A stretch of DNA of 32,403 nucleotides. Origin: a virus (taxonomy: Duplodnaviria; Heunggongvirae; Uroviricota; Caudoviricetes). Shown here in pieces: positions 1,882 to 30,600 of this stretch (position 1 is the stretch's first letter; the number at the start of each line of letters is the position of its first letter). Made by a program: the position numbers and the translations under genes. The notes below the pieces were generated by a model. The model searched no databases and was not told the origin of the DNA. It saw nothing but the letters and a program-made list of their open reading frames with translations. The stretch lies in the IMG/VR virus record IMGVR_UViG_2675903336_000004. One strand, 5' to 3'.

Positions 1882-4901
<3,020 letters not shown>

Positions 4902-4978: not shown

Positions 4979-5031
4979 GTGTATTGCAATGTGTATTGCA
5001 AATTGGCGATCGGGATGGGTGTGTATTGCAA
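4979..5031 (+). repeat. integrase arm-type direct repeats GTGTATTGCAA x3 (attL arm, upstream of int)
   Basis: Exact 11-mers at 4979-4989, 4991-5001 and 5021-5031. Two more copies in the same orientation sit at 15645-15667, just inside attR. Confidence 0.7.
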
Positions 5032-5049: not shown

Positions 5050-6291
5050 ATGGCTATTGAAAACAAACTCAGTGACAAACTGTTAAAGAGTCTTGTCGGA
5101 AAACGGCAGGACAAACAAAAAACAATAGCGGATGGGCGCGGGTTGTCTGTGCGTGTAAGCATGGTTGGGGGGATCAGCTTTGTTTTTTACTATCGTCTTG
5201 GTGGCAGGGAATCCCCTCCGGTATGGCTTACACTTGGTCGCTATCCTGACATGTCTCTTGCAACGGCCAGGCGCATGCGTGATCAGTGCCGTGAATGGCT
5301 GGCTGAAAATCTGGACCCCCGCAGGCAAATAAAACTTGCTGCCGAAAAAACTATGCAACCAGTGACCGTAAGGGATGCGCTGTTTTACTGGTACGACAAT
5401 CACGCCACAACAGCCAGAAAAGAGCATGAATATTTAATAAAACGATTTGAAAAGCATATCTTCCCCTATATCGGTGATATGGCTATAGAACAGTGCAAAT
5501 TACACACATGGCTTACCGTCTTTGACAGGATCAAAAAAAATGCGCCTGTTATGTCTGGTGCAATTTTTCTTGATATCAAACAGGCGTTGCGTTTTTGTCG
5601 CGTCAGGCAATACATCGCGTGCGATCCCTTTGGAGATATTAACGTAAGTTATGTCGGGCGCTCATCCGGTATAAGGGATCGCGTTCTTAATATCAATGAA
5701 ACCGCTGATGTATGGTCTTATGCTTACGGTAATAATTTGCTAACTCTGTCATCAATATATAACCGAAGAATAATGGTTATCTGCCTGGTGTTTGGTTGCC
5801 GACAGCAGGAGGCGAGGCTATCCACCTGGGACGAATGGGATTTAAAAAACTGGGTATGGACAGTCCCAAAAGAGCACAGCAAAAACAAGGAGGCTATAGT
5901 AAGGCCTGTTCCTGACGGAATAAAACAATGGATCGTTAATCTTTACGCAGAAACAAAAAATCGCGGTTATGTTGTCGGTTGTGCTTTGCAAAGGGCGACA
6001 ATAACAGGGGCTGCAAACAGAATATGCAGGCGTCTTGGTCATGATACTAATGGCTTGTGGTGCATACATGATTTCAGGCGCACATTTTCCACTACGCTTA
6101 ATGATATGGGGGCGGATCCTTATATTGTCGAACTTCTTTTAGGTCATAAAGTGAAAGGGGTTGCTGGTGTTTACAATAAAAGCAGGCATATAAAGAAAAA
6201 ACTTGAGGTGCTTAATATGTGGGTTAATTACCTTAATACGATAGCAGGATTTAACAACAACGTTATCGAGCTTAATAAAGAGGTGGTGTGA
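5050..6291 (+). CDS. int: tyrosine-type site-specific integrase (P4-like family)
   Basis: 413-aa ORF with the C-terminal catalytic signature HDFRRTFSTTLNDMGADPYIVELLLGH...VYNKS (His-x-x-Arg and Tyr). Located immediately inside attL, preceded by the arm repeats. Confidence 0.9.
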   Translation: MAIENKLSDKLLKSLVGKRQDKQKTIADGRGLSVRVSMVGGISFVFYYRLGGRESPPVWLTLGRYPDMSLATARRMRDQCREWLAENLDPRRQIKLAAEKTMQPVTVRDALFYWYDNHATTARKEHEYLIKRFEKHIFPYIGDMAIEQCKLHTWLTVFDRIKKNAPVMSGAIFLDIKQALRFCRVRQYIACDPFGDINVSYVGRSSGIRDRVLNINETADVWSYAYGNNLLTLSSIYNRRIMVICLVFGCRQQEARLSTWDEWDLKNWVWTVPKEHSKNKEAIVRPVPDGIKQWIVNLYAETKNRGYVVGCALQRATITGAANRICRRLGHDTNGLWCIHDFRRTFSTTLNDMGADPYIVELLLGHKVKGVAGVYNKSRHIKKKLEVLNMWVNYLNTIAGFNNNVIELNKEVV

Positions 6292-6292
6292 T

Positions 6293-6550
6293 ATGACAAT
6301 TTATTCTCTTGTTGATGAAAACGATTTGCGCACAATGAAGGACATTGATCGGTTCATTCGTGAAAAAGAGTGCATAGCACTTACCACGCTGGCAAACTCA
6401 ACACGCTGGAAAATGGAGCAGGCAGGTAAATTCCCGCGACGTATCAAGATCGGTGAACGTGCTGCAGGGTATCGACTTTCAGAGGTTCAGGCATGGATCC
6501 GTGGTGAGTGGCATCCTGGATGGAAACCTGGAAAAACAAAACAGCAATAA
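6293..6550 (+). CDS. alpA: AlpA-family transcriptional regulator / putative excisionase
   Basis: 85-aa ORF directly downstream of int. The segment IREKECIALTTLANSTRWKMEQAGKFPRRIKIGERAAGYRLSEVQAWI fits the AlpA/Xis-type HTH pattern. Confidence 0.8.
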   Translation: MTIYSLVDENDLRTMKDIDRFIREKECIALTTLANSTRWKMEQAGKFPRRIKIGERAAGYRLSEVQAWIRGEWHPGWKPGKTKQQ

Positions 6551-6606: not shown

Positions 6607-7185
6607 ATGAATAAAAATATTGCCGTGACGGGCAAGGGGTACGCTCGTCCAGTGAAAAAATTCTGCGATATTCGTGATCTCGTCGTTCTGCGCTTTGATA
6701 GTGTGAACGTTCGTGTGGTGTATCTGAACGGCGATCCGTGGTTTGTTGCAAAAGATGTTTGTGCTGCGCTGGAACTAACCAATTCGCGTACGGCGTTGCA
6801 GATGCTTGATGATGATGAAAAGGGAGTAAATTTAACTTACACCCCAGGAGGAAATCAGAATATGAGAATTATCTCTGAGTCAGGTTTCTACAAACTAATA
6901 GCCCGCAGCCGCAAAGCAACGACGCCTGGCACATTTGCTCATCGTTTCAGTAACTGGGTATTCAGAAATGTGATACCAGGTATCAGAAAAACGGGGACTT
7001 ATGGTATCCCGTGGGGTGCATTACAGGATTTTTCCCGCCGTAAAGAGCAATATCAAATAAGTGCCAGCGAGAAGGGGAGGGAGCTACAGGCATGTAAGCG
7101 CAAAAAGCGTGAGCTGGAGGAAGAAGAAAAAACGCTGATACGTGAATATCAGCCTGAGTTTTACTTTGGTAACCGCATTCAGTGA
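6607..7185 (+). CDS. Bro-N domain protein (antirepressor-like)
   Basis: 192-aa ORF. The segment DPWFVAKDVCAALELTNSRTALQMLDDDEKG...ISESGFYKLIARSRKATTPGTFAHRFSNWVFRNVIPGIRKTGTY matches the Bro-N/KilA-N type domain, with a charged coiled-coil-like C-terminus. Confidence 0.65.
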   Translation: MNKNIAVTGKGYARPVKKFCDIRDLVVLRFDSVNVRVVYLNGDPWFVAKDVCAALELTNSRTALQMLDDDEKGVNLTYTPGGNQNMRIISESGFYKLIARSRKATTPGTFAHRFSNWVFRNVIPGIRKTGTYGIPWGALQDFSRRKEQYQISASEKGRELQACKRKKRELEEEEKTLIREYQPEFYFGNRIQ

Positions 7186-7518: not shown

Positions 7519-7824
7519 CTATTCATGCTCTTTGACCTTGCGTCGCTGGAGTTCTTCACGCGCGACGGTGACGAGTTGCCCGATCTCCTCGGCTGCTTTG
7601 ATGCCGATTTGTTCGACCTTAGCCAGGGCATCCAGTGACGACACAAGGGGATTTTCTCCGCTGCCTTCTGCTTGGCGGCGGGCTATTTCTCCGCGCATGG
7701 CGGTTACGATAAATCCGGCATTGCTTTCACCGTCCAGCTTAACGGATTCCATCCCTTGCATAACATCTAGTGGGACTCTGACAGTTGTCAGTTGTGATTT
7801 TGCGTTTTTGTTAGCCGTTGCCAT
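7519..7824 (-). CDS. putative transcriptional regulator (101 aa), divergent from the island early operon
   Basis: Complete ORF with an AGGAG RBS 8 nt upstream. It is transcribed away from the operator-containing intergenic region, and its position mirrors satellite/phage repressor genes. Fold assignment is tentative. Confidence 0.45.
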   Translation of the reverse strand: MATANKNAKSQLTTVRVPLDVMQGMESVKLDGESNAGFIVTAMRGEIARRQAEGSGENPLVSSLDALAKVEQIGIKAAEEIGQLVTVAREELQRRKVKEHE

Positions 7825-8014: not shown

Positions 8015-8212
8015 ATGGTTGCTGTAAATCATATACCACACCTTGTACACACACAAACGGCCTTTGTGTGGCGTTTTCTGGCACTGAGTGCCGGAGAATC
8101 TCAAATCATCCACGTAACCGCCTGGACGGAACGCGAAGCGCGTAGCCGTTGCCCGTCCGGTTGTGTTGCTGTATTCGCTGCAAAAATCCGCCAGGGAGTG
8201 AGTCATGCTTAA
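8015..8212 (+). CDS. small protein (65 aa), possibly Icd-like cell-division-inhibitor family
   Basis: ATG at 8015 with an AGGAG RBS 5 nt upstream; it shares frame and stop with the tail of the spurious long ORF 7142..8212. First gene after the operator-controlled promoter. Family assignment is from memory of a VWRFLAL-type motif and is tentative. Confidence 0.4.
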   Translation: MVAVNHIPHLVHTQTAFVWRFLALSAGESQIIHVTAWTEREARSRCPSGCVAVFAAKIRQGVSHA

Positions 8213-8390
8213 AACCTTCCGTGTATTTGCCCGAGCTGTTAACCCAATAGGCCACACAATTGGTATCGCTCAGAATGTGAAGGCTGTTAATGTTCAGACG
8301 GCTATTGCTGCGGTGAGAAGCGAATCATCAGAATATGGCTTATCACAAGTCATTATTTCAGCAGTGTATGAATTAAAAGAGGTGCATTAA
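8205..8390 (+). CDS. hypothetical protein (61 aa)
   Basis: Complete ORF whose start overlaps the stop of the preceding gene, indicating a translationally coupled operon. Confidence 0.4.
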   Translation: MLKTFRVFARAVNPIGHTIGIAQNVKAVNVQTAIAAVRSESSEYGLSQVIISAVYELKEVH

Positions 8391-8581
8391 TGCAGGAAAT
8401 TACATTACACGAAGCCGCTGAACGTGCGCACCAGACAGAAATTATTTGCCGCCTTCTTGAGGTATACCCGAACAAAATTACAGATGCTGATATATCCGCA
8501 CTGGCGAGCCTACTGGCGCGTCTTTCGGGAAGTGTCGCTAGTTTTTTGATTGAGGAAGAAAGTAAGCTGGTGGGGGATTAA
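8390..8581 (+). CDS. hypothetical protein (63 aa)
   Basis: Complete ORF with a TAATG stop/start overlap with the previous ORF. Confidence 0.4.
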   Translation: MQEITLHEAAERAHQTEIICRLLEVYPNKITDADISALASLLARLSGSVASFLIEEESKLVGD

Positions 8582-8803
8582 ATGAATACAGAACGGGAAG
8601 TCTTTTTTAAATTGTTAGCATGTGCAGAAAGTTCATTAACTTTAAATAATTCAGCAAAAGCAATATTAAATATGTGGCTTGATTGCATAAATGACAATGA
8701 AGATGCAAATATTGCTTATGGCCTGTTGTCACTTATTGATGAATCAGCAGAAAAACTCAATGACGCAATAAATAGTGCCCTGCTATCAAATAAGTCGAGT
8801 TAA
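8582..8803 (+). CDS. hypothetical protein (73 aa, AT-rich)
   Basis: Complete ORF abutting the previous stop. Codon composition is AT-rich. Confidence 0.4.
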   Translation: MNTEREVFFKLLACAESSLTLNNSAKAILNMWLDCINDNEDANIAYGLLSLIDESAEKLNDAINSALLSNKSS

Positions 8804-8820
8804 GTCGAGGAATAAATAAT

Positions 8821-9120
8821 ATGGAAATGAAAAATTCTGGCTTTATTGCCAGCGGCCCCGCTCGACCTGAATTTATGAACGGCGATATTTACCGCGATAA
8901 ATACGGCGGCACGGTAACGATTAAAGGCGTGGCAGAACGGCGCATCACTTACCGCCGTGAGGGGTATAGCTATGACTGCGTGATGCCTGTTTATCAGTTC
9001 CGGCGTGATTTTTCCCTGGTATATGCCGCACCCCGCAGTAAGCCCATCAGCAGGGAAAAAGCGTGGGGAAATATCCAGAAAATGAAAACCATGATTAACG
9101 GATTCAGAGGTAAAAAATGA
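8821..9120 (+). CDS. hypothetical protein (99 aa)
   Basis: Complete ORF with an ATGA overlap with the pri-rep start. Confidence 0.45.
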   Translation: MEMKNSGFIASGPARPEFMNGDIYRDKYGGTVTIKGVAERRITYRREGYSYDCVMPVYQFRRDFSLVYAAPRSKPISREKAWGNIQKMKTMINGFRGKK

Positions 9121-10871
9121 AACTGGCACCGAACGTAAAACAGCAGTCACGCGGCATAAAACACAAAGGAACAGAAGTCATTATTTTTGCGGGTAGTGAT
9201 GCCTGGGCACACGCGAAACAATGGCAGGAACATGATGCGCGTATGGCCGGAGATAATGAGCCTCCTGTGTGGCTTGGGGAGCAGCAGCTATCCGAACTGG
9301 ATAATCTGCAAATTGTGCCGGAAGGCCGAAAATCAGCACGCATATACAGGGCCGGATATCTTGCGCCTGTAATGATAAAGACGATTGGTCAGAAGCTGGC
9401 GGCAGCAGGCGTACAGGATGCAAATTTTTATCCTGAGGGTATGCACGGCCAGGAGGTGCAGAACTGGCGCGAATATCTGGCCCGTGAACGCCAGAATCTT
9501 TCTGATGGTCTGGTCATTGAGCTTCCGGTAAAGCAAAAGGCGCAACTTTCGCAGATGGCGGACAGTGAGCGCGCGCAGTTGCTTGCCGATCGCTTTGATG
9601 GCGTTTGCGTACATCCTGAAAGTGAAATCGTTCACGTATGGCGCGGCGGGGTATGGTGTCCGGTCAGCACAATGGAACTTAGCCGCGAAATGGTGGCGAT
9701 CTATTCAGAGCACAGGGCCACTTTCAGCAAGCGCGTAATCAATAACGCCGTGGAAGCGTTAAAAGTTATTGCCGAACCAATGGGCGAGCCGTCTGGCGAT
9801 TTGCTGCCGTTCGCCAATGGTGCGCTTGACCTGAAAACGGGGGAATTTTCCCCGCACACGCCGGAGAACTGGATCACCACGCACAACGGCATTGAGTACA
9901 CGCCACCAGCACCAGGGGAGAACATCCGCGATAACGCGCCAAACTTTCATAAATGGCTTGAGCACGCAGCCGGAAAAGACCCGCGCAAGATGATGCGTAT
10001 ATGTGCCGCGCTGTACATGATTATGGCGAACCGGTACGACTGGCAGATGTTTATTGAGGCCACCGGAGACGGCGGGAGCGGTAAAAGTACATTCACACAC
10101 ATAGCCAGCCTTCTGGCAGGGAAACAGAACACGGTAAGCGCTGAAATGACATCGCTTGATGATGCTGGTGGACGTGCGCAGGTTGTCGGGAGTCGTCTTA
10201 TCGTCCTGGCTGACCAGCCGAAATATACAGGCGAAGGAACGGGCATCAAGAAAATCACAGGCGGCGACCCCGTGGAAATTAACCCGAAATATGAAAAGCG
10301 TTTCACGGCGGTAATCAGGGCGGTGGTGCTGGCGACCAACAACAACCCGATGATATTCACCGAACGGGCCGGAGGTGTGGCACGTCGTCGCGTGATTTTC
10401 CGTTTCGACAATATCGTCAGTGAGGCCGAAAAAGACAGGGAGCTACCGGAAAAGATTGCGGCTGAAATCCCCGTTATTATCCGCCGATTGCTGGCGAACT
10501 TTACCGACCCTGAGAAGGCACGGGCTTTACTACTGGAACAGCGTGACGGTGATGAAGCACTGGCAATAAAGCAACAGACGGATCCGGTTATTGAGTTTTG
10601 CCAGTTCCTGAATTTTCTGGAGGAAGCGCGCGGCCTGATGATGGGTGGCGGTGGTGATTCAGTGAAGTACACGACCAGGAACAGCCTTTACCGCGTCTAT
10701 CTGGCGTTTATGGCATACGCGGGCAGGAGCAAACCGCTAAACGTGGCTGAGTTCAGCAAGGCCATGAAGCCAGCGGCGAAAGTTTACGGGCATGAATATA
10801 TTACGCGAAAAGTTAAGGGAGTAACGCAGACCAACGCAATTACAACAGACGATTGCGACGCGTTTTTATAA
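9117..10871 (+). CDS. primase/helicase replication initiator (pri-rep; P4-alpha/D5-like NTPase)
   Basis: 584-aa ORF with Walker A GDGGSGKST and a Walker B-like RLIVLADQP. Size, domain order and position (upstream of an iteron array) are as in PICI pri-rep genes. Confidence 0.85.
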   Translation: MKLAPNVKQQSRGIKHKGTEVIIFAGSDAWAHAKQWQEHDARMAGDNEPPVWLGEQQLSELDNLQIVPEGRKSARIYRAGYLAPVMIKTIGQKLAAAGVQDANFYPEGMHGQEVQNWREYLARERQNLSDGLVIELPVKQKAQLSQMADSERAQLLADRFDGVCVHPESEIVHVWRGGVWCPVSTMELSREMVAIYSEHRATFSKRVINNAVEALKVIAEPMGEPSGDLLPFANGALDLKTGEFSPHTPENWITTHNGIEYTPPAPGENIRDNAPNFHKWLEHAAGKDPRKMMRICAALYMIMANRYDWQMFIEATGDGGSGKSTFTHIASLLAGKQNTVSAEMTSLDDAGGRAQVVGSRLIVLADQPKYTGEGTGIKKITGGDPVEINPKYEKRFTAVIRAVVLATNNNPMIFTERAGGVARRRVIFRFDNIVSEAEKDRELPEKIAAEIPVIIRRLLANFTDPEKARALLLEQRDGDEALAIKQQTDPVIEFCQFLNFLEEARGLMMGGGGDSVKYTTRNSLYRVYLAFMAYAGRSKPLNVAEFSKAMKPAAKVYGHEYITRKVKGVTQTNAITTDDCDAFL

Positions 10872-11218: not shown

Positions 11219-11470
11219 ATGACCAAAATTCGCAGAGACAGAACACAGGCAAAATATAAAGCGTTAGACATGACAGAGCTTTCCTTAAAGGTGGCAATCA
11301 AAGCGATAGACCACCACACACGGGCAGGATACGCGAAGGAACATCCCGACCTGATAAGCGCATTCATGACCACAGCAGCGGCAAACTTTGCCACGCTGAC
11401 AGAACGGGAGATTGCCGAAGCGGAACAGGTGACAACCATCAATGTTAAAACCGGAGAGCAGACAGCATGA
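11219..11470 (+). CDS. hypothetical protein (83 aa from the ATG at 11219; track ORF begins at 11156)
   Basis: ATG at 11219 has an AGGGG RBS 6 nt upstream. Stop overlaps the ssb start (ATGA). Confidence 0.45.
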   Translation: MTKIRRDRTQAKYKALDMTELSLKVAIKAIDHHTRAGYAKEHPDLISAFMTTAAANFATLTEREIAEAEQVTTINVKTGEQTA

Positions 11471-11889
11471 CAGCACAGATAGCGGCTTACGGGCGGCTGG
11501 TGGCTGACCCGCAGTTAAAGACCACCAGCAAAGGGACACAAATGGCGATGGCGAGTATGGCGGTTCCCCTGCCGTGCAGCCAGGCAGATGACGGAACGGC
11601 GACGATGTGGTTATCCGTCCTGGCGTTTGGCAGACAGGCCGACGCACTGGCAAAACACCACAAAGGCGAACTGGTGAGCGTGGCGGGTAACATGCAGGTA
11701 AGCCAGTGGACAGGCCAGAACGGCGAAACGCGGCGGGGCTGGCAGGTTATCGCAGACAGCGTAATCAGTGCGCGAACGGCGCGACCGGGCGGCAAAAAAG
11801 GCCAGCAGGGGCAGGCCACTGACGCACTGAACAGGGCAAAACAACAGTCGGGGAATGATGATCCGTACGGCGATAATATACCGTTTTAA
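11467..11889 (+). CDS. ssb: single-stranded DNA-binding protein
   Basis: 140-aa ORF with an OB-fold-like core (MWLSVLAFGRQAD...VSQWTGQNGETRRGWQVIADSV), a Gly/Gln-rich linker and an acidic tail ending DDPYGDNIPF, like the SSB C-terminal DDDIPF tail. Confidence 0.75.
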   Translation: MTAQIAAYGRLVADPQLKTTSKGTQMAMASMAVPLPCSQADDGTATMWLSVLAFGRQADALAKHHKGELVSVAGNMQVSQWTGQNGETRRGWQVIADSVISARTARPGGKKGQQGQATDALNRAKQQSGNDDPYGDNIPF

Positions 11890-12100
11890 ATTCTGCAAAC
11901 AAAAAGATGCCGGAAAAAAATAGATTTTCCGGCATGCTACATAAATCCCGACCAAAGGAAGTAAATACATTAACACGAATTATCAGCACTGAAGTTGTTA
12001 CGGCATATTTTATACAACATTGCACTTGGTTGCATGTATTCGCATAGCAGACATCGGTAATAGAATATATTCACAATTATTTGTAATGAATGTAAAGAGG

Positions 12101-13147
12101 ATGAGTATGGTTGATTTATATTCGCCTACACAGCTTGTGCAGGTGGCTAATGCTGAAGATGTGCAAAAAAAATTAAATGCGTTGTTTACCAGTTTGTTTT
12201 TCACTCGCTCGGTAATGTTTGAATCGAGAGACATTATTCTTGATACGATCGACGATCCAAATATCCCGATCGCGGCGTTTTGCTCTCCTATGGTGGGCAG
12301 TAAAGTTTCACGAGATGAGGGATACGAATCAAAAACAATTCGTCCAGGTTATATGAAGCCGAAAAGCAGCATTGATCCAAATAAGTTAGCTGTGCGCCCT
12401 GCTGGTGTGTCACCTGAGCAATACAATGCTTTTGGGGCGCGTAATATTAAAGTTAAACAGGCGATTGTAAATCAGGCTAAAGCTATTCGTGCACGTATTG
12501 AATGGCTTGCTGTTCAGGCAATCACAACGGGGAAAAATATCATTGAGGGCGATGGTATTGAACGTTATGAGCTGGACTGGAATATAAAACCACAAAATAT
12601 CATCACTCAGTCTGGCGGTACTGAGTGGTCAGGTAAGGATAAAGAAACTTTTGATCCAAATGATGATATTGAGAGCTACGCAGAATTTAGTGAGGGCGTC
12701 ACTAATATCATCATTATGGGTGGTAATGTATGGAAGAAATACCGTTCATTCAGAGCGATAAAAGAGGCTTTGGATACCCGTCGTGGTTCTAATTCCGAAC
12801 TGGAAACGGCCCTTAAAGACCTTGGTGATTCGGTGAGTTTTAAAGGGTATATGGGCGATGTTGCGATTGTTGTTTACAGCGGGCGTTATACCGACGAGGA
12901 CGGAACAGAAAAACATTTCCTTGATCCTGATTTGATGGTGCTTGGCAATACGGCTCTTCAGGGGATTGTCGCCTATGGCGGTATTCAGGATCCGGAGCTA
13001 ATCCGAATGGGGCTGACTAAAGCCGAACTTGCACCGAAAAACTATATTGTGCCTGGTGATCCGGCTATTGAATATGTGCAGACACATTCAGCACCACAGC
13101 CAATACCGGCCCGCATCAATCGTTTTGTTACCGTTCGCATTGGCTAA
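12101..13147 (+). CDS. lambda gpE-like major capsid protein paralog (island-encoded)
   Basis: Alignable by eye along its length to the helper gpE in this window (18230..19255), e.g. ITQSGGTEWSGKDKETFDPNDDIESYA vs ITQSGVTEWSKRDKSTYDPTDDIEAYA, and TRRGSNSELETALKDLG...YMGDVAIVVYSG vs TRRGSHSELETAVKDLG...MYGDVAIVVYSG. Clearly diverged. An alternative start at 12107 has better RBS spacing. Confidence 0.8.
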   Translation: MSMVDLYSPTQLVQVANAEDVQKKLNALFTSLFFTRSVMFESRDIILDTIDDPNIPIAAFCSPMVGSKVSRDEGYESKTIRPGYMKPKSSIDPNKLAVRPAGVSPEQYNAFGARNIKVKQAIVNQAKAIRARIEWLAVQAITTGKNIIEGDGIERYELDWNIKPQNIITQSGGTEWSGKDKETFDPNDDIESYAEFSEGVTNIIIMGGNVWKKYRSFRAIKEALDTRRGSNSELETALKDLGDSVSFKGYMGDVAIVVYSGRYTDEDGTEKHFLDPDLMVLGNTALQGIVAYGGIQDPELIRMGLTKAELAPKNYIVPGDPAIEYVQTHSAPQPIPARINRFVTVRIG

Positions 13148-13156
13148 GGGGGAGCA

Positions 13157-13498
13157 ATGGCTACTCATTACACTGAACTCATGGCTGGCACTGAAGCACT
13201 GGTGACTACGCTGGGGATATTTTCAGCTAATAAAGGGGTAATTCCTGCATTTACGCCACTGATGCAGGAAGATGCAACAGGTGCACTGGTGGTATGGGAT
13301 GGTTCGAGCGTAGGTAAAGCGGTTTATGTTTCCGCTGTACAAATCGACACAGCGAAAAAAACACAGGCACAGGTTTATAAGACAGGTGTTTTAAATGTTG
13401 ATGCTCTGAACTGGCCTGAGTCTGTAAAAGAACTGTCGGCAAAGGTTGCCGCGTTTGTTGGCTCAGGTATTTCTGTTCAGCCGCTGGCTCGTGTGTAA
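13157..13498 (+). CDS. lambda gpD-like head decoration protein paralog (island-encoded)
   Basis: 113-aa ORF with a strong RBS (AAGGGGGAG). Shares the motifs TPLM, WDG, YKxG and WPE with the helper gpD (17842..18174) at equivalent spacing. Gene order is E-like then D-like, the reverse of lambda. Confidence 0.7.
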   Translation: MATHYTELMAGTEALVTTLGIFSANKGVIPAFTPLMQEDATGALVVWDGSSVGKAVYVSAVQIDTAKKTQAQVYKTGVLNVDALNWPESVKELSAKVAAFVGSGISVQPLARV

Positions 13499-13509
13499 AG
13501 GGGGATACA

Positions 13510-13893
13510 ATGCAGAATCATTACAATGACCTTAAGCCAATTGCCGAAATGATGTATCCGGATCCAGCAGTAGAGGAATTAAAGGCTATTGCTGACAAAA
13601 TGCGTTTAAGTGAACGCCTTGTTGATATGAATCAGGTGATGGAACTTACTACCCTTAGCCGTCGCACATTGCTAAACCTTGAGGCTCGCGGAGAGTTCCC
13701 CGAACGCGTACAGGTTACGGAAGGGCGTAAGGCCTGGTATTTAAGTGAAGTGATCGACTGGATAAACAATATTCCTCGATCTTCTGAATATTGCCGCGTA
13801 CCTGTCCCAAAAAAGCCAGATGCGGCGCTATGCCTCAAGATTGAGCGTGTACGTCGCAATGCACGGGATGGTCGCTATAAGTTGATTGGTTGA
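13510..13893 (+). CDS. AlpA-like HTH DNA-binding protein (second AlpA paralog), directly upstream of the island cos
   Basis: 127-aa ORF with RBS AGGGGG. The central segment MELTTLSRRTLLNLEARGEFPERVQVTEGRKAWYLSEVIDWI fits the AlpA/MerR-like HTH pattern and is flanked by N- and C-terminal extensions. Confidence 0.6.
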   Translation: MQNHYNDLKPIAEMMYPDPAVEELKAIADKMRLSERLVDMNQVMELTTLSRRTLLNLEARGEFPERVQVTEGRKAWYLSEVIDWINNIPRSSEYCRVPVPKKPDAALCLKIERVRRNARDGRYKLIG

Positions 13894-13918
13894 TGAAATT
13901 AGGGCCCGTTCTGGCTGG

Positions 13919-13985
13919 CGGGTCCTTTCCGGCGATCCGGTAGGCTACGGGGCGGCGACCTCGCGGGTTTTCGCTATTTATGAGC
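13919..13985 (+). other. cos: island cos site (cosQ-like segment plus canonical lambda cosN GGGCGGCGACCT at 13950-13961)
   Basis: gggtcctttccggcgatccg...ctacgGGGCGGCGACCTcgcgggttttcgctatttatga matches the lambda cos core as recalled. Downstream sequence, where cosB would be, differs from the prophage cosB. Confidence 0.8.
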
Positions 13986-14094
13986 CTTTTTCGGGTGCTG
14001 GTGGTGGTTTTGTTGTTCGCTCTATCTCTATGAATAAAAAGGAAAAGATAAAGCCAATACACCAACCTGAAACATTACTTAAGTGGGGATATTG

Positions 14095-14637
14095 ATGAAA
14101 TCGCACCTGATGAACAAAAAAAACATGGCGCAAAGCTGCCGTGTAAGTGCGACAGCGTTCGACAAGTGGGGAGTGACTCCCGTTGAACGTAAAGGCCGCG
14201 AGGCGTTTTATGATGTTGCCAGCGTAATAGACAATCGGGTTAGCAATGCAATTAACCAGATTACAGACGACAAAGGCGAGATTGATGATGATGAACTCCT
14301 ACGAGTCAGGATCAGATTGCTGACAGCACAGGCAGAGGCGCAGGAGCTTAAAAACGAGCGCGAACGCGGCGACGTTATTGATACAGCGTTTTGTATATAC
14401 GTGCTTTCAAAATTGGCGAGTCAGATTTCTTCAATCATGGACAGCCTGCCGCTTGCCATGACAAGGAAGTTTCCCGACATGAAGCCGTCTATGCTGGATG
14501 GACTGAAAAAAGAAGTTATCAGAGCCTGTAACGCATGCGCAAAACTTGACGAAAACATACCGCTGATGCTGTCCGATTATCTGATGGAAACTGCCGGAAA
14601 CGTACCGGATAAGTTGCAGCCGAATAAAGATAAGTAA
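14095..14637 (+). CDS. Nu1-like terminase small subunit (island-encoded; diverged N-terminal DNA-binding domain)
   Basis: The C-terminal two-thirds align with helper Nu1 (LTAQAEAQELKNERERGDVIDTAFCIYVLSKLASQISSIMDSLPLAMTRKFPDM vs LTRAQADAQELKNARDSAEVVETAFCTFVLSRIAGEIASILDGIPLSVQRRFPEL). The N-terminal about 60 aa are diverged. ATG at 14095 has a GTGGGG RBS; the track ORF starts at GTG 14083. Confidence 0.85.
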   Translation: MKSHLMNKKNMAQSCRVSATAFDKWGVTPVERKGREAFYDVASVIDNRVSNAINQITDDKGEIDDDELLRVRIRLLTAQAEAQELKNERERGDVIDTAFCIYVLSKLASQISSIMDSLPLAMTRKFPDMKPSMLDGLKKEVIRACNACAKLDENIPLMLSDYLMETAGNVPDKLQPNKDK

Positions 14638-14648
14638 CGTAGTACGCT

Positions 14649-14930
14649 ATGACTGAATCCGAAATACTGCGATTAATCCGCCGTGCTTGTGGAATCAGCA
14701 AGCAGCATGACGAACAGGCCACGCAGCCGGACAGCGTGACCGCAGATAATTATGTGCGTGTAGTGGCTGAGGTGATGCGCCGTGACGGTATTGAGCTTAA
14801 CGGCGTGGATATGCGCAACATACGAACAAGAGTCCTTGAGTTGCTGGCATATCGTCGCCGTTCTCAACAACGGAGGGAGAGCGCGAAAAATACTTACCAG
14901 TGGAAGAAGCCGGAACGATTGCGGCGGTAA
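14649..14930 (+). CDS. hypothetical protein (93 aa, Arg-rich C-terminus)
   Basis: Complete ORF immediately downstream of the island terS. No recognisable motif. Confidence 0.4.
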   Translation: MTESEILRLIRRACGISKQHDEQATQPDSVTADNYVRVVAEVMRRDGIELNGVDMRNIRTRVLELLAYRRRSQQRRESAKNTYQWKKPERLRR

Positions 14931-14945
14931 CTTGCTGATATTCCC

Positions 14946-15156
14946 GATAACGCAAAATTGCGCTGGCTGACTTGTTGCATTGCAAAAAGTTAAGCAGGAA
15001 GGCACGGCCTGTAAGATGGGATGCAGTAAGTAGTTCAAGGCTACCTTGTGCTGGCACGCACAGTTAAGCCGTCGGTGCTGGATATCCCCCACTGGGGGAA
15101 AAGCTGGCTACATCCCTCACATCTGAGGACTGATAACGCGACATTGCGCTGGCTGG
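14946..15156 (+). repeat. pair of 24-bp direct repeats GATAACGC(A/G)A(A/C)ATTGCGCTGGCTG, each followed by a short palindrome
   Basis: Copies at 14946-14969 and 15133-15156 match at 22 of 24 positions. Palindromes CGCAAAATTGCG and GTGCAAAATTGCAC lie within or next to them. Confidence 0.6.
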
Positions 15157-15180
15157 CAAAGTGCAAAATTGCACGATGGC

Positions 15181-15342
15181 CTAACCCATTGATTATTTCG
15201 AAAACCTGCAATGCAGGAAATCGGGGAAGTAAGCCTAAGCTATTGATTGTTTCGAAAACCCCCATTGGGGGATGTCGGGAAAGTAAGACTAACCCATTGA
15301 TTCTTCCACAATCCTCAATTTGAGGAGGCCGGAACGTCTACA
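15181..15342 (+). repeat. three tandem 54-bp repeat units, each with a different perfect hairpin (covarying stems)
   Basis: Units start at 15181, 15235 and 15289, each with CTAA(C/G)C(C/T)ATTGATT. Hairpins are CCTGCA-a-TGCAGG (15205-15217), CCCCCA-ttg-GGGG (15259-15271, stem of 4-5 bp) and CCTCAA-t-TTGAGG (15313-15325). Related hairpins lie upstream at 15086-15098 and 15115-15128. Confidence 0.7.
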
Positions 15343-15644: not shown

Positions 15645-15667
15645 GTGTATTGCAGTGTGTATTGCGA
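15645..15667 (+). repeat. integrase arm-type repeats (GTGTATTGCAG, GTGTATTGCGA) at the attR arm
   Basis: Two copies in the same orientation as the three attL copies, about 75 bp inside the attR core. Confidence 0.65.
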
Positions 15668-16316: not shown

Positions 16317-16584
16317 NNNNNNNNNNNNNNNNNNNNNNNNNNNNNNNNNNNNNNNNNNNNNNNNNNNNNNNNNNNNNNNNNNNNNNNNNNNNNNNNNNNN
16401 NNNNNNNNNNNNNNNNNNNNNNNNNNNNNNNNNNNNNNNNNNNNNNNNNNNNNNNNNNNNNNNNNNNNNNNNNNNNNNNNNNNNNNNNNNNNNNNNNNNN
16501 NNNNNNNNNNNNNNNNNNNNNNNNNNNNNNNNNNNNNNNNNNNNNNNNNNNNNNNNNNNNNNNNNNNNNNNNNNNNNNNNNNNN

Positions 16585-20071: not shown

Positions 20072-20697
20072 ATGGCCATAAAAGGTCTTGAGCAGGCCGT
20101 TGAAAACCTCAGCCGTATCAGCAAAACGGCGGTGCCCGGTGCCGCCGCAATGGCCATTAACCGCGTTGCTTCATCCGCGATATCGCAGTCTGCGTCACAG
20201 GTTGCCCGTGAGACAAAGGTACGCCGGAAACTGGTAAAGGAAAGGGNNNNNNNNNNNNNNNNNNNNNNNNNNNNNNNNNNNNNNNNNNNNNNNNNNNNNN
20301 NNNNNNNNNNNNNNNNNNNNNNNNNNNNNNNNNNNNNNNNNNNNNNNNNNNNNNNNNNNNNNNNNNNNNNNNNNNNNNNNNNNNNNNNNNNNNNNNNNNN
20401 NNNNNNNNNNNNNNNNNNNNNNNNNNNNNNNNNNNNNNNNNNNNNNNNNNNNNNNNNNNNNNNNNNNNNNNNNNNNNNNNNNNNNNNNNNNNNNNNNNNN
20501 NNNNNNNNNNNNNNNNNNNNNNNNNNNNNNNNNNNNCCGGGAAAAACCGTTACCCCATTGATGTGGTGAAAATCCCGATGGCGGTGCCGCTGACCACGGC
20601 GTTTAAACAGAATATTGAACGGATACGGCGTGAACGTCTTCCGAAAGAGCTGGGCTATGCGCTGCAGCATCAACTGAGAATGGTAATAAAGCGATGA
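20072..20697 (+). CDS. Z: tail completion protein Z (contains masked gap 20247-20536)
   Basis: N-terminus MAIKGLEQAVENLSRISKTAVPGAAAMAINRVASS... before the gap. After the gap the frame ending at TGA 20695-20697 encodes ...[49 protein letters not shown]. The gap length breaks the apparent frame. Confidence 0.85.
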
Positions 20698-22691: not shown

Positions 22692-25263
22692 ACCGGTAGG
22701 CGATCTGGTCGTTGATTTGAGTCTGGATGCGGCCAGATTTGACGAGCAGATGGCCAGAGTCAGGCGTCATTTTTCCGGTACGGAAAGTGATGCGAAAAAA
22801 ACAGCGGCAGTCGTTGAACAGTCGCTGAGCCGACAGGCGCTGGCTGCACAGAAAGCGGGGATTTCCGTCGGGCAGTATAAAGCCGCCATGCGTATGCTGC
22901 CTGCACAGTTCACCGACGTGGCCACGCAGCTTGCAGGGGGGCAGAATCCCTGGCTGATCCTGCTGCAACAGGGTGGTCAGGTTAAGGACTCCTTCGGCGG
23001 GATGATCCCCATGTTCAGGGGGCTTGCCGGCGCGATCACCCTGCCGATGGTGGGGGCCACCTCGCTGGCGGTGGCGACCGGTGCGCTGGCGTATGCCTGG
23101 TATCAGGGCAACTCAACCCTGTCCGATTTCAACAAAACGCTGGTCCTTTCCGGTAATCAGGCGGGACTGACGGCAGATCGTATGCTGGTCCTGTCCAGAG
23201 CCGGGCAGGCGGCAGGGCTGACGTTTAACCAGACCAGCGAGTCACTCAGCGCACTGGTTAAGGCGGGGGTAAGCGGTGAGGCTCAGATTGCGTCCATCAG
23301 CCAGAGTGTGGCGCGTTTCTCCTATGCATCCGGCGTGGAGGTGGACAAGGTCGCTGAAGCCTTCGGGAAGCTGACCACAGACCCGACGTCGGGGCTGACG
23401 GCGATGGCACGCCAGTTCCATAACGTGACGGCGGAGCAGATTGCGTATGTTGCTCAGTTGCAGCGTTCCGGCGATGAAGCCGGGGCATTGCAGGCGGCGA
23501 ACGAGGCCGCAACGAAAGGGTTTGATGACCAGACCCGCCGCCTGAAAGAGAACATGGGCACGCTGGAGACCTGGGCAGACAGGACTGCACGTGCATTCAA
23601 ATCCATGTGGGATGCGGTGCTGGATATTGGTCGTCCTGATACCGCGCAGGAGATGCTGATTAAGGCAGAGGCTGCGTTTAAGAAAGCAGACGACATCTGG
23701 AATCTGCGCAAGGATGATTATTTCGTTAACGATGAAGCACGGGCGCGTTACTGGGATGATCGTGAAAAAAAACGCCTGGAGCGGGATGCAGCCCAAAAGA
23801 GGGTAGATCAACAGCGTCAACAGGACAAAAATGCGCAGCAGCAGAGCGATACCGAAGCGTCACGGCTGAAATATACCGAAGAGGCGCAGAAGGCTTACGA
23901 ACGGCTGCAGACGCCGCTGGAGAAATATACCGCCCGTCAGGAAGAACTGAACAAGGCACTGAAAGACGGAAAAATCCTGCAGGCAGATTACAACACGCTG
24001 ATGGCGGCGGCGAAAAAGGATTATGAAGCGACGCTGAAAAAGCCGAAACAGTCCGGCGTGAAGGTGTATGCGGGCGATCGTCAGGAAGACAGTGCTCATG
24101 CGGCCCTGCTGACGCTTCAGGCAGAACTCCGGACGCTGGAGAAGCATGCCGGAGCGAATGAGAAAATCAGCCAGCAGCGCCGGGATTTGTGGAAGGCAGA
24201 AAGTCAGTTCGCGGTACTGGAGGAGGCGGCACAACGTCGCCAGCTGTCCGCACAGGAGAAATCCCTGCTGGCGCATAAAGACGAGACGCTGGAGTACAAA
24301 CGCCAGCTGGCTGCACTTGGTGACAAGGTTACGTATCAGGAGCACCTGAATGCGCTGGCGCAGCAGGCGGATAAATTCGCACAGCAGCAACGGGCAAAAC
24401 GGGCAGCCATTGATGCGAAAAACCGGGGGCTGACTGACCGGCAGGCAGCGCGGGAAGCCACGGAACAGCGCCTGAAGGAACAGTATGGCGATAATCCTCT
24501 GGCGCTGAATAACGTCATGTCAGAGCAGAAAAAGACCTGGGCGGCTGAAGACCAGCTTCGCGGGAGCTGGATGGCAGGCCTGAAGTCCGGCTGGAGTGAG
24601 TGGGAAGAGAGCGCCACGGACAGTATGTCACAGGTTAAAAGTGCAGCCACGCAGACCTTTGATGGTATTGCACAGAATATGGCGGCGATGCTGACCGGCA
24701 GTGAACAGAACTGGCGCAGCTTCACCCGCTCCGTGCTGTCCATGATGACAGAAATTCTGCTTAAGCAGGCAATGGTGGGGATTGTCGGGAGTATCGGCAG
24801 CGCCATTGGCGGGGCTGTTGGTGGCGGCGCATCCGCGTCAGGTGGTACAGCNNNNNNNNNNNNNNNNNNNNNNNNNNNNNNNNNNNNNNNNNNNNNNNNN
24901 NNNNNNNNNNNNNNNNNNNNNNNNNNNNNNNNNNNNNNNNNNNNNNNNNNNNNNNNNNNNNNNNNNNNNNNNNNNNNNNNNNNNNNNNNNNNNNNNNNNN
25001 NNNNNNNNNNNNNNNNNNNNNNNNNNNNNNNNNNNNNNNNNNNNNNNNNNNNNNNNNNNNNNNNNNNNNNNNNNNNNNNNNNNNNNNNNNNNNNNNNNNN
25101 NNNNNNNNNNNNNNNNNNNNNNNTGATTCAGAACGACGGTACGAATGGTCTGCCAGGTCCACAGATGATGAAGGCCGTGTATGACATGGCCCGCAAGGGT
25201 GCCCGTGATGAAATTCAGACACAGATGCGTGATGGTGGCCTGTTCTCCGGAGGTGGACGATGA
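22684..25263 (+). CDS. H: tail tape measure protein H (contains masked gap 24852-25123)
   Basis: MAEPVGDLVVDLSLDAARFDEQMARVRRHFSGTESDAKKTAAVVEQS... is a long Ala/Gln-rich coiled-coil protein matching lambda gpH. Confidence 0.93.
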   Translation: MAEPVGDLVVDLSLDAARFDEQMARVRRHFSGTESDAKKTAAVVEQSLSRQALAAQKAGISVGQYKAAMRMLPAQFTDVATQLAGGQNPWLILLQQGGQVKDSFGGMIPMFRGLAGAITLPMVGATSLAVATGALAYAWYQGNSTLSDFNKTLVLSGNQAGLTADRMLVLSRAGQAAGLTFNQTSESLSALVKAGVSGEAQIASISQSVARFSYASGVEVDKVAEAFGKLTTDPTSGLTAMARQFHNVTAEQIAYVAQLQRSGDEAGALQAANEAATKGFDDQTRRLKENMGTLETWADRTARAFKSMWDAVLDIGRPDTAQEMLIKAEAAFKKADDIWNLRKDDYFVNDEARARYWDDREKKRLERDAAQKRVDQQRQQDKNAQQQSDTEASRLKYTEEAQKAYERLQTPLEKYTARQEELNKALKDGKILQADYNTLMAAAKKDYEATLKKPKQSGVKVYAGDRQEDSAHAALLTLQAELRTLEKHAGANEKISQQRRDLWKAESQFAVLEEAAQRRQLSAQEKSLLAHKDETLEYKRQLAALGDKVTYQEHLNALAQQADKFAQQQRAKRAAIDAKNRGLTDRQAAREATEQRLKEQYGDNPLALNNVMSEQKKTWAAEDQLRGSWMAGLKSGWSEWEESATDSMSQVKSAATQTFDGIAQNMAAMLTGSEQNWRSFTRSVLSMMTEILLKQAMVGIVGSIGSAIGGAVGGGASASGGTXXXXXXXXXXXXXXXXXXXXXXXXXXXXXXXXXXXXXXXXXXXXXXXXXXXXXXXXXXXXXXXXXXXXXXXXXXXXXXXXXXXXXXXXXXXXIQNDGTNGLPGPQMMKAVYDMARKGARDEIQTQMRDGGLFSGGGR

Positions 25264-27665: not shown

Positions 27666-30600
27666 ATGGGTAAAGGCAGCAGTAAGGGGCATACCCCGCG
27701 CGAAGCGAAGGACAACCTGAAGTCCACGCAGCTGCTGAGTGTGATCGATGCCATCAGCGAAGGGCCGGTTGAAGGTCCGGTGGATGGATTAAAAAGCGTG
27801 CTGCTGAACAGTACGCCGGTGCTGGACAGTGAGGGGAATACCAACATCTCCGGCGTCACGGTGGTGTTCCGGGCAGGTGAGCAGGAGCAGTCACCGCCGG
27901 AGGGATTTGAATCCTCCGGCTCCGAGACGGTGCTGGGTACGGAAGTGAAATATGACACGCCGATCACCCGGACCATCACGTCGGCAAACATTGACCGACT
28001 GCGTTTTACCTTCGGTGTACAGGCACTGGTGGAAACCACCTCAAAGGGAGACAGGAATCCGTCTGAAGTTCGCCTGCTGGTTCAGATACAGCGTAACGGT
28101 GGCTGGGTGACGGAAAAAGACATCACCATTAAGGGCAAAACCACCTCGCAGTATCTGGCCTCGGTGGTGGTGGATAACCTGCCGCCGCGCCCGTTTAATA
28201 TCCGGATGCGCAGAATGACGCCGGACAGCACCACAGACCAGCTGCAGAACAAAACGCTCTGGTCGTCATACACCGAAATCATCGATGTGAAACAGTGCTA
28301 CCCGAACACGGCACTGGTCGGCGTACAGGTGGATTCGGAGCAGTTCGGCAGCCAGCAGGTGAGCCGTAATTATCATCTTCGCGGGCGCATTCTGCAGGTG
28401 CCGTCGAACTATAATCCGCAGACGCGGCAATACAGCGGTATCTGGGACGGAACGTTAAAACCGGCATACAGCAACAACATGGCCTGGTGTCTGTGGGATA
28501 TGCTGACCCATCCGCGCTATGGCATGGGGAAACGTCTTGGTGCGGCAGATGTGGATAAATGGGCGCTGTATGTCATCGGCCAGTACTGTGACCAGTCGGT
28601 GCCGGACGGCTTTGGCAGCACGGAGCCGCGCATCACCTGTAATGCCTGGCTGACCACACAGCGCAAGGCGTGGGATGTGCTCAGTGATTTCTGCTCGGCG
28701 ATGCGCTGTATGCCGGTATGGAACGGGCAGACGCTGACGTTCGTGCAGGACCGACAGTCGGATAAGGTGTGGGCCTATAACCGCAGTAATGTGGTGATGC
28801 CGGATGATGGCGCGCCGTTCCGCTACAGTTTCAGCGCCCTGAAAGACCGCCATAATGCCGTTGAGGTGAACTGGATTGACCCGGATAACGGCTGGGAGAC
28901 GGCGACAGAGCTTGTGGAGGATACGCAGGCCATTGTCCGTTACGGTCGTAACGTCACGAAGATGGATGCCTTTGGCTGTACCAGCCGGGGGCAGGCACAC
29001 CGCGCCGGGCTGTGGCTGATTAAAACGGAACTGCTGGAGACGCAGACCGTGGATTTCAGCGTGGGTGCTGAAGGGCTTCGTCATGTACCGGGCGATGTCA
29101 TTGAAATCTGCGATGATGACTATGCCGGTATCCGCACCGGCGGGCGCGTGCTGGCGGTGAACAGCCAGACCCGGACGCTGACGCTCGACCGTGAAATCAC
29201 GCTGCCATCCTCCGGCACCACGCTGATAAGCCTGGTTGACGGGCAGGGGAATCCGGTCAGCGTGGAGGTCCAGTCCGTCACCGACGGCGTGAAGGTAAAA
29301 GTGAGCCGTGTTCCTGACGGTGTTGCTGAATACAGCGTGTGGGGGCTGAAGCTGCCGACGCTGCACCAGCGATTGTTCCGCTGCGTGAGTATCCGTGAGA
29401 ACGACGACGGCACGTATGCCATCACCGCCGTGCAGCATGTGCCGGAAAAAGAAGCCATCGTGGATAACGGGGCGCACTTTGACGGCGACCAGAGCGGCAC
29501 GGTGAATGGTGTCACGCCGCCAGCGGTGCAGCACCTGACTGCCGAAGTCACCGCAGACAGCGGGGAATATCAGGTGCTGGCGCGCTGGGACACGCCGAAG
29601 GTGGTGAAGGGCGTGAGCTTCCTGCTCCGTCTGACCGTAACAGCGGATGACGGCAGTGAGCGGCTGGTCAGCACGGCCCGGACGACGGAAACCACTTACC
29701 GCTTCACACAACTGGCGCTGGGGAACTACANNNNNNNNNNNNNNNNNNNNNNNNNNNNNNNNNNNNNNNNNNNNNNNNNNNNNNNNNNNNNNNNNNNNNN
29801 NNNNNNNNNNNNNNNNNNNNNNNNNNNNNNNNNNNNNNNNNNNNNNNNNNNNNNNNNNNNNNNNNNNNNNNNNNNNNNNNNNNNNNNNNNNNNNNNNNNN
29901 NNNNNNNNNNNNNNNNNNNNNNNNNNNNNNNNNNNNNNNNNNNNNNNNNNNNNNNNNNNNNNNNNNNNNNNNNNNNNNNNNNNATCAAACCGGGCCATGA
30001 TTATTACTTTTATATCCGCAGTGTGAACACCGTTGGCAAATCGGCATTCGTGGAGGCTGTTGGTCAGCCGAGTGATGATGCATCCGGTTATCTGGATTTT
30101 TTCAAAGGCGAGATAGGGAAAACCCATCTGGCTCAGGAGCTGTGGACGCAGATTGATAACGGTCAGCTTGCGCCTGACCTGGCTGAAATCAGGACGTCCA
30201 TTACGGATGTCAGCAATGAAATCACGCAGACCGTCAATAAGAAACTGGAAGACCAGAGTGCGGCAATTCAGCAGATACAGAAGGTTCAGGTTGATACAAA
30301 TAATAACCTGAACAGCATGTGGGCTGTGAAGCTGCAGCAGATGCAGGACGGACGCCTTTATATCGCGGGTATTGGTGCCGGTATTGAGAACACCCCTGAC
30401 GGCATGCAGAGTCAGGTGCTGCTGGCGGCGGACAGGATTGCGATGGTTAATCCTGCGAATGGCAACACAAAACCGATGTTTGTTGGTCAGGGCGATCAGA
30501 TATTCATGAACGACGTGTTCCTGAAACGCCTGACGGCCCCCACCATTACCAGCGGTGGAAATCCATCGGCATTTTCCCTGACTCCGGACGGAAAGCTGAC

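Follow-up and report, generated by a model that had tools for sequence, protein, structure and literature searches.

A second AlpA-family protein in the capsid module of a helper-embedded satellite island is a candidate autoregulator of that module

The window analysed here is a stretch of viral DNA of 32,403 nucleotides (IMG/VR record IMGVR_UViG_2675903336_000004) that carries a satellite island with two genes of the AlpA family: alpA1, beside the integrase gene int, and alpA2, the last gene of a capsid unit, capE-gpD-alpA2, that lies next to cos. Our conclusion, which we hold tentatively and put a little short of an even chance, is that AlpA2 is a module-specific and probably activating autoregulator of capE-gpD-alpA2, acting through phased repeats at the capE promoter and not at cos, at terS or in excision. 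A second AlpA protein is unsurprising in itself. The supplement of PMC10111431 lists multiple Phage_AlpA families per helper-embedded phage-inducible chromosomal island (HE-PICI), without assigned function, and one of its gene profiles has ‘Phage_AlpA.4’ between the primase and the capsid genes. The novelty lies in how the alpA2 paralogue is invariably paired with one capsid-module lineage and with its candidate operator. In the literature we found no paper that discusses the alpA2 gene. In the only experimental statement on them that we found, a passage of PMC10111431 that cites Fillol-Salom 2018, the captured capsid genes are described as dispensable for transfer of EcCICFT073; how such genes are regulated in Gram-negative PICIs, and what purpose they serve, is the question that the candidate regulator–operator pair opens.

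A sequence-only reading of this DNA had noted a second AlpA-like helix-turn-helix (HTH) protein upstream of cos and terS and between the capsid genes and cos, in addition to the usual alpA beside int, and all three placements are borne out by our annotation (Table 1). The alpA2 open reading frame (ORF) starts with ATG, and the 11 nt gap between gpD and alpA2 contains its ribosome-binding site, AAGGGGGA. Residues 36–85 of the protein match Pfam Phage_AlpA (PF05930; E=1.3e-8, 35 bits against a cut-off of 21), while phrog_2790, whose PHROG label is ‘excisionase and transcriptional regulator’, is matched over nearly the full length (E=2.4e-48). RefSeq genomes that are 100% identical to the window annotate the same coding sequence, WP_001179424.1, as a helix-turn-helix or AlpA family transcriptional regulator; a search of NCBIfam gave no match. 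An AlphaFold model built from an 18-sequence alignment of the family has a winged HTH of the Phage_AlpA/MerR type, confidently placed at residues 36–86 (predicted local distance difference test score, pLDDT, ∼90), two less confident N-terminal helices at about residues 8–33, and a basic C-terminal helix at residues 105–119 (pLDDT ∼79). By sequence and by fold, then, AlpA2 belongs to the Pfam AlpA family. The full 127-residue architecture recurs in ∼100 protein clusters at 50–95% identity, all of them from Enterobacteriaceae, with a nearly invariant winged HTH core and a conserved basic C-terminal helix (LCLKxERVRRxAR). Because conservation extends over the full length in so many clusters, we take alpA2 to be a real gene rather than an ORF arisen by chance. 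AlpA1 belongs to the same Pfam family, yet the two proteins are only ∼28% identical and their recognition helices differ. The nearest solved structure to AlpA2 is the excisionase 8c3t, 42% identical over the winged HTH. When the AlpA2 family was compared by tblastn with 50,697 phage records no match was returned, so AlpA2 appears to be an addition made by the satellite, rather than a gene captured along with the capsid genes of a helper. The capsid module with alpA2 is found at a coverage of at least 80% in 264 of 5426 complete E. coli genomes.

To place alpA2 in its contexts, loci (designated L and a number) were collected from divergent homologues, a scan of species-representative genomes, EcCICFT073 and 120 IMG/VR loci found via the attP motif, and were annotated by tblastn with the proteins of the window. 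The order capE-gpD-alpA2-cos is invariant in at least 13 loci from about ten enterobacterial genera, which include Escherichia, relatives in the Enterobacter group, Kosakonia, Kluyvera, Superficieibacter, Cedecea, Buttiauxella, Scandinavium and Serratia. In every case alpA2 lies directly 3′ of a single capE-gpD lineage, ‘type A’ (capE 74–100% identical to that of the window), and is followed by cosQ and cosN; at loci with called genes, the gap between gpD and alpA2 is 6–15 nt. The remaining genes of these loci vary. The integrases are 25–100% identical to that of the window and use the portal gene, the capsid gene or fis as their site; the regulator next to int may be AlpA1, a diverged AlpA or, in L138, an HTH_17 protein, while in L002 no homologue of it is detectable; the primase is of the D5_N, Toprim-D5 or DUF927 type; and cos may be followed by a Nu1-like terS, in L008 by a lambda tail-I-like gene, or by another gene.

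Within this variation AlpA2 separates from the packaging genes that adjoin it. Five loci (L005, L008, L014, L016 and L140) have alpA2 without an island terS, and in L005 the capE-gpD-alpA2 unit is kept beside a lambda-type cosB with R3/I1-like sequence. L035 and L038, by contrast, have int and alpA1 98% identical to those of the window together with window-type terS (83%) and cosB blocks, while their capsid module is of the EcCICFT073 type (capE 55% identical) and has a 137-residue Nu3/scaffold-like protein in the alpA2 slot. Given these recombinants, AlpA2 and the island terS/cosB are doubly dissociable. They also show that the late zones of PICIs are put together from cassettes that can be exchanged: a capsid module with its own control element, and a set of cos, cosB and terS, or one with Rpp replacing terS. 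Such a build is relevant to the engineering of PICI-based delivery particles. L035 (IMGVR_UViG_2617271340_000010) is a natural mosaic, in which int, alpA1 and Bro-N of the window type are followed by a capsid module of the EcCICFT073 type and then by window-type cosB, terS and orf93.

The same comparisons bear on the possibility, raised in the sequence-only reading, that AlpA2 is a cos-proximal specificity factor. Such a packaging accessory would bind DNA by cosQ/cosN, or the terminase, as a specificity or architectural factor in the manner of Rpp or of IHF at cosB, and would thereby help to mark out or shield the packaging site of the satellite. The alpA2 stop codon is 26 nt 5′ of cosQ and 56 nt 5′ of cosN. 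Against such a role, AlpA2 occurs with a lambda-type cosB and no island terS in L005, and the island terS and cosB occur with the Nu3-like gene in its place in L035. Islands without AlpA2, EcCICFT073 for one, share the same cosQ and cosN (lambda, too, possesses cosQ), and between alpA2 and cosN there is no conserved block specific to AlpA2, cosQ and cosN alone being conserved. Nor does AlpA2 have sequence similarity to RppA, and no Rpp or TerS chain was returned by the PDB sequence search. Finally, strong intrinsic terminators lie 3′ of alpA2, just before cosQ, in L138 and L140, as well as 3′ of the slot gene of EcCICFT073, so the unit ends ahead of cos. In the window only a GC-rich hairpin that overlaps cosQ is found here, and it is no better than shuffled sequence. 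We therefore disfavour the specificity-factor proposal, and rate an accessory role at cos as distinctly unlikely. Of the broader suggestion that AlpA2 belongs to the packaging or late module rather than to excision, the late capsid module stands, as alpA2 follows capE-gpD and does not co-vary with int, alpA1 or attP, but a part in packaging is not supported.

Two further identities were considered for a protein in this position and rejected. The first is Rpp (RppA/RppC; Fillol-Salom 2019, PMC6739421), with which AlpA2 has only a generic winged HTH fold in common. Rpp lies 3′ of cos in the terS slot and has an N-terminal winged HTH and a C-terminal dimerisation domain, whereas AlpA2 coexists with a full TerS, or occurs without one. 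An Rpp-like complex with the helper TerS, by which the latter would be redirected to the island cosB, is disfavoured indirectly, AlpA2 being dissociated from the type of cosB. BLASTP gave no alignment of the island TerS with RppA, and phmmer against the PDB (E<=10) did not return RppC. Nor is AlpA2 a TerS; it has no match to the Phage_Nu1 profile, which the neighbouring 180-residue protein does match. The second is homology to the 137-residue protein that occupies the same slot, between gpD and cos, in EcCICFT073. The slot is built alike there, but the gene is unrelated, and after it come a strong terminator and cos, with RppA filling the terS slot; BLASTP does not align the EcCICFT073 slot protein with AlpA2, and the slot protein is Nu3/scaffold-like, matching the C-terminal part of head maturation proteases (phrog_53) and having no HTH. 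This protein occupies the alpA2 slot in each of the AlpA2-less modules (EcCICFT073, which is represented by L012/L017, and L018, L035, L038 and L128), all of which begin with a 68-residue ORF. We considered a ribbon-helix-helix regulator for that first ORF and dropped it, as Pfam offers no support. The AlpA antiterminator of Pseudomonas aeruginosa, which has a Q21-like fold of eight helices with an N-terminal ring and a C-terminal HTH, matches AlpA2 neither in sequence nor in fold, and we regard the name as a coincidence.

A second role to be weighed is that of an additional excisionase or recombination directionality factor, in which AlpA2 would bind the attP arms and govern excision and integration jointly with AlpA1. 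Its closest solved relative is an excisionase, its PHROG label includes the word, and the attP arm motif TGTATTGCA has an ATTGCA core in common with the repeats at capE described below. Yet AlpA2 is found with integrases only 25–53% identical to that of the window, at fis, capsid-gene and portal-gene sites, and it occurs in fis PICIs, for which the attP motif is not reported. L035, with an integrase 98% identical and the two attP arm motifs, lacks AlpA2. In the window, alpA2 lies ∼1.7 kb from the nearest attP arm motif (15646–15666) and in another operon. Since AlpA2 tracks neither the integrase, alpA1 nor the attP arm motif when L035 and L038 are compared with the window, an excisionase role is disfavoured, and we think it very improbable. 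Excisionases of the Xis/AlpA/RdfS type, such as the GIsul2 excisionase (8c3t) and P4 Vis, differ from AlpA2 in this respect, AlpA2 being unlinked to integrase or attP and having its candidate sites at a capsid-gene promoter.

A further comparison is with the PICI AlpA, which is encoded beside int and serves EcCICFT073 and other Gram-negative PICIs as their master activator (Fillol-Salom 2018, PMC6092414). AlpA2 has PF05930 and the winged HTH fold in common with this protein and with CP4-57 AlpA. It is a satellite-encoded DNA-binding regulator like the PICI AlpA, and is predicted to be, probably likewise, an activator of its own operon. Identity to the two is ∼28–31%, and the recognition helix is SRRTLLNLE in AlpA2 against NSTRWKMEQ. 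AlpA2 also differs from the PICI AlpA in its length of 127 residues, its extra N-terminal helices, its basic C-terminal helix, its place in a capsid operon beside cos and its lack of co-variation with int. It is encoded after capE-gpD, 7.2 kb 3′ of int, and the int-adjacent place is filled by alpA1. As neither position nor co-variation with int agrees with the role of master activator, AlpA2 is not the PICI master AlpA.

We turn to the DNA through which AlpA2 may act. Upstream of capE, 88–104 bp 5′ of its ATG, lies an array of three to four direct repeats, nnATTGCAY, phased at 10 bp. In Kosakonia, Kluyvera and Superficieibacter it consists of ATTGCAC three times over after TTTATACA, with TGnTAnnAT, the counterpart of the TAGAAT hexamer of the window, some 25 nt further on, no -35 element being recognisable. 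The array is conserved between genera that have diverged in the flanking intergenic DNA, and because the surroundings are not conserved it constitutes a phylogenetic footprint. We derived a 9-nt matrix from the repeat units and scored triples at 9–11 bp spacing on both strands of whole loci of 9–32 kb. In a leave-one-out scan the array ranked first in the window and in L013–L016, and second in L004; in loci held out of the matrix it ranked first in L003, L138 and L140 and second in L002, scoring 26.7 in L138 against 10.1 for the next-best site. The array was found in none of the five AlpA2-less capsid modules examined (EcCICFT073, L018, L035, L038 and L128), all of which have ATTGCA-N5-TGCAAT palindromes instead, with a strong-looking promoter and beside TGATTATAAT. 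On the minus strand within gpD (13261–13289) a second triple of TGCA-containing units, spaced at 9–10 bp, reaches almost the score of the operator in E. coli loci; this site is probably coincidental, being coding sequence and scoring low in L013–L015 and in other genera.

Two observations concern the protein that binds the array. L138 has the array and no gene of the AlpA1 family, an HTH_17 gene replacing it, and L035 lacks the array despite having the AlpA1 and integrase of the window (98% identity); AlpA1 is therefore an unlikely binder. In addition, the repeat core changes along with residue R52 in the recognition helix of AlpA2. All lineages that retain R52 have units of the form TTGCAY; in the Cedecea-type loci L016 and L140, where R52 is replaced by G, the core is TTGTAC, and in Serratia L008, where it is replaced by Q, the core is TTGTGC. 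We consider this covariation suggestive of a link between AlpA2 and the array.

In the arrangement we propose, a promoter with its operator would be followed by capE, gpD, alpA2, in several lineages a terminator, and then cos. AlpA2 would be a Xis/MerR-type winged HTH protein with helices added at both ends, and we infer that it binds the three or four repeats (12010–12045 in the window) cooperatively, in a head-to-tail manner. Head-to-tail DNA binding is known for its structural relatives Xis, RdfS and BldC. Measured from a -10-like element without a good -35, the repeats would span about -65 to -30, and it is this placement that suggests an activator. Positive feedback would follow from the location of alpA2 inside the operon under its control. 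In the integrated state, Q-modified transcription of the helper would read into the island, as the co-orientation described in PMC10111431 suggests; after excision from the Q-antiterminated late transcript of the helper, the auto-activating loop would sustain synthesis of the capsid and decoration proteins. The earlier suggestion that AlpA2 activates a capsid/terS operon is thus kept in part. Activation fits the candidate operator at the capE promoter, but the link to terS is lost, given that AlpA2 occurs without the island terS, and terS and cosB without AlpA2.

It is important to note that several points weigh against this reading. AlpA2, type-A capE-gpD and the array might occur together simply because they are inherited as one cassette, and it could be another protein that binds the array, be it AlpA1, Int or some factor of the host or helper. 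The covariation with R52 comprises two events only. The attP arm motif of HE-PICIs and the palindromes of the AlpA2-less modules have the ATTGCA core too, although in the attP motif, which has only this core in common with the array, the spacing is 12 bp as against 10 bp at capE. Two loci, L002 and L003, have the array on the other strand and nearer to capE, at ∼53 bp from its ATG, and L008 (Serratia) scores poorly with the matrix, its units (ATTGTGC/CTTGTGC) being assigned by eye. Upstream insulation of the promoter is similarly doubtful: hairpins occur in other loci at the position equivalent to the terminator-like hairpin between ssb and the capE promoter, but the hairpin of the window has a T-run on the minus-strand side alone, which is wrong for plus-strand termination, and as the scan flags no other strand there we reject it as a plus-strand terminator. 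Lastly, the array of the window lies 9 bp nearer to the -10 than in most genera, and its last unit overlaps the -35, a layout equally apt for a repressor. The sign of regulation is for this reason uncertain.

A repressor acting at the same array, by which AlpA2 would limit capsid dosage or silence the integrated module, is consistent with this last unit, which lies 14–16 bp from the -10 and overlaps the -35 not only in the window but in L008, L002 and L003; the AlpA2-less modules, moreover, have a palindrome between -35 and -10, as would suit a repressor. In most genera, however, the array ends ∼25 bp 5′ of the -10 and no -35 can be recognised, which is typical of activator-dependent promoters, and were AlpA2 a repressor, silencing could not be set up in a newly infected cell, its gene lying at the end of the very operon to be silenced. 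We regard negative autoregulation as unlikely.

We similarly doubt, and to much the same degree, that the target of AlpA2 lies in the helper. AlpA2 would on this account act in trans on the late or capsid genes of the helper or on its cos, by interference or transactivation, as do delta and epsilon of P4 or CapR of the phage-inducible chromosomal island-like elements (PLE). Satellites commonly put helper-manipulating genes in their late zone, and the AlpA2 family is confined to satellites. In P4 the transactivator delta sits within the sid-delta-psu capsid operon, beside cos, and by analogy the place of alpA2 would suit such a role. Against it, no array above background is found in the ∼21 kb of helper late region in the window, nor in L001; the helper pR′/Q region lies beyond the ends of the window. 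AlpA2 is also conserved although the helpers differ, some loci being flanked by lambda-like tail genes and L002 and L003 by P2-like baseplate genes, and the difference in helpers favours a target within the island.

To return to autoregulation of the capsid unit, the closest functional analogy is P4 delta: a satellite regulator within a capsid-related late operon beside cos, presumed to be a self-activating late switch. The likeness is one of function only, as delta has an unrelated fold (an Ogr-type zinc finger) and we found no sign that AlpA2 acts on helper promoters. A more far-reaching proposal, which we regard as possible though rather doubtful, is that AlpA2 and its operator form a self-contained late switch with positive feedback, independent of helper Q after excision and possibly also reaching helper promoters. 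If this were true, the switch would do in function what delta does in P4, on the basis of an excisionase fold, and enterobacterial PICIs would have their first described regulator dedicated to late genes. The candidate pair is confined to one capsid-module lineage, and offers a handle on questions of capsid remodelling, helper interference and packaging size.

Table 1. Positions of the island features in the window
Feature	Position	Strand	Evidence or remark
attP arm motif TGTATTGCAATGTGTATTGCA with third TGTATTGC unit (5022)	4980-5029	+	just 5′ of int; partner copy 15646-15666
int	5050-6291		
alpA1, int-adjacent	6293-6550	+	Pfam Phage_AlpA E=4.7e-14; recognition helix LANSTRWKMEQAGKFP
Bro-N gene	6607-7185		
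YlcI-like gene	7519-7824	-	
Small ORFs, including Icd-like and DUF4222 genes	8016-9120		
D5-type primase	9117-10871		
SSB	11467-11889		
Stable GC-rich hairpin, terminator-like	11905-11935	.	between ssb and capE promoter; z = -5.0
Candidate operator, four 10-bp-phased direct repeats	12010-12045	+	5′ of capE; TTATAC 12010, TTGCAC 12020, TTGCAT 12030, TTCGCA 12039
-10-like hexamer TAGAAT, putative capE promoter	12061-12066	+	promoter scan and alignment; consensus match only
capE-like gene, satellite major capsid protein (lambda gpE-like, ‘type A’)	12107-13147	+	Pfam Phage_cap_E E=3.8e-41, RefSeq annotation, tblastn
gpD-like gene, satellite head decoration protein (lambda gpD-like)	13157-13498	+	Pfam HDPD E=4e-15, RefSeq annotation
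alpA2, 127-residue AlpA-family winged HTH protein	13510-13893	+	last gene of capE-gpD-alpA2 unit
Hairpin overlapping cosQ, then cosQ and cosN	13901-13961	+	
cosQ GGGTCCTTTCC	13920-13930		
cosN cohesive-end sequence GGGCGGCGACCT	13950-13961		lambda-type
Island-specific cosB-like region	13962-14094	+	conserved blocks CGCTATTTATGA, CTGGTGGTGGTTTTGTT, CAATACACCAAC; goes with island terS, not alpA2
terS, island small terminase, Nu1-like	14095-14637	+	Pfam Phage_Nu1 E=3.5e-24, phrog_57 E=3e-51, RefSeq annotation
orf93	14649-14930		

The window itself is the late region of a lambdoid prophage, with lysis genes, Nu1, A, W, a split portal gene, protease, D, E and tail genes, and the island, of ∼10.9 kb, is inserted within the portal gene of this lambda-like prophage. 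E. coli APEC O2-211 has identical DNA (100%), in which the two halves of the portal gene are annotated as pseudogenes on either side of the island. The attP arm motif described in PMC10111431, tgTGTATTGCantgTGTATTGCa, which is reported there in all HE-PICIs and not in fis PICIs, is found at 4980–5000 and 15646–15666, where none is expected by chance, and the island fits the HE-PICI definition of that paper. The satellite capE product is ∼45% identical to the helper E protein. In many HE-PICIs, among them the IMG/VR loci L024, L027, L037, L045 and L050, int is followed directly by two or three AlpA-family genes in tandem.

Further observations were made in the packaging region. The resident helper prophage has the same cosQ as the island, while its cosN (in the region 1117–1160) is GGGCGGAAGGCG, unlike the GGGCGGCGACCT of the island; its cosB is lambda-like (R3 CGTTTCCGTTCT), and the island cosB is unrelated to it. 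The island TerS matches the Pfam Nu1 profile over its C-terminal half only (residues 70–152), the N-terminal, DNA-binding part having diverged from lambda Nu1, and a PDB sequence search with this protein matched no chain, the lambda Nu1 N-terminal domain included. These findings would fit a private cosB specificity. An exact Chi octamer, GCTGGTGG, is present at 13997–14004, ∼45 bp inside the left cohesive end of the island, and falls in a block, CTGGTGGTGGT(T/G)TTGTT, that is conserved in all terS-bearing islands; it may serve as an R-site for TerS and not be a functional Chi.

Between orf93 and attR is an unannotated stretch of ∼800 bp that is rich in repeats. Three tandem 54-nt repeats (15179–15340), 61–80% identical to the reference copy, each hold a short palindrome (CTGCAATGCAG, CCCCCATTGGGGG and CCTCAATTTGAGG), and the same stretch holds two copies of a 24-nt direct repeat, at 14946 and 15132, as well as the inverted repeat GTGCAA-AA-TTGCAC at 15161–15174. 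A scan of the window against Rfam, the tandem repeats included, gave no match. Finally, five runs of N, of 253–290 bases each (3140–3426, 16317–16584, 20247–20536, 24852–25123 and 29731–29983), break the terminase, portal/protease and tail genes of the helper. They are ∼3.6–4.9 kb apart, save for the first pair at ∼13 kb, and since the matching RefSeq genome is continuous at those places, they look like masked stretches rather than assembly gaps.

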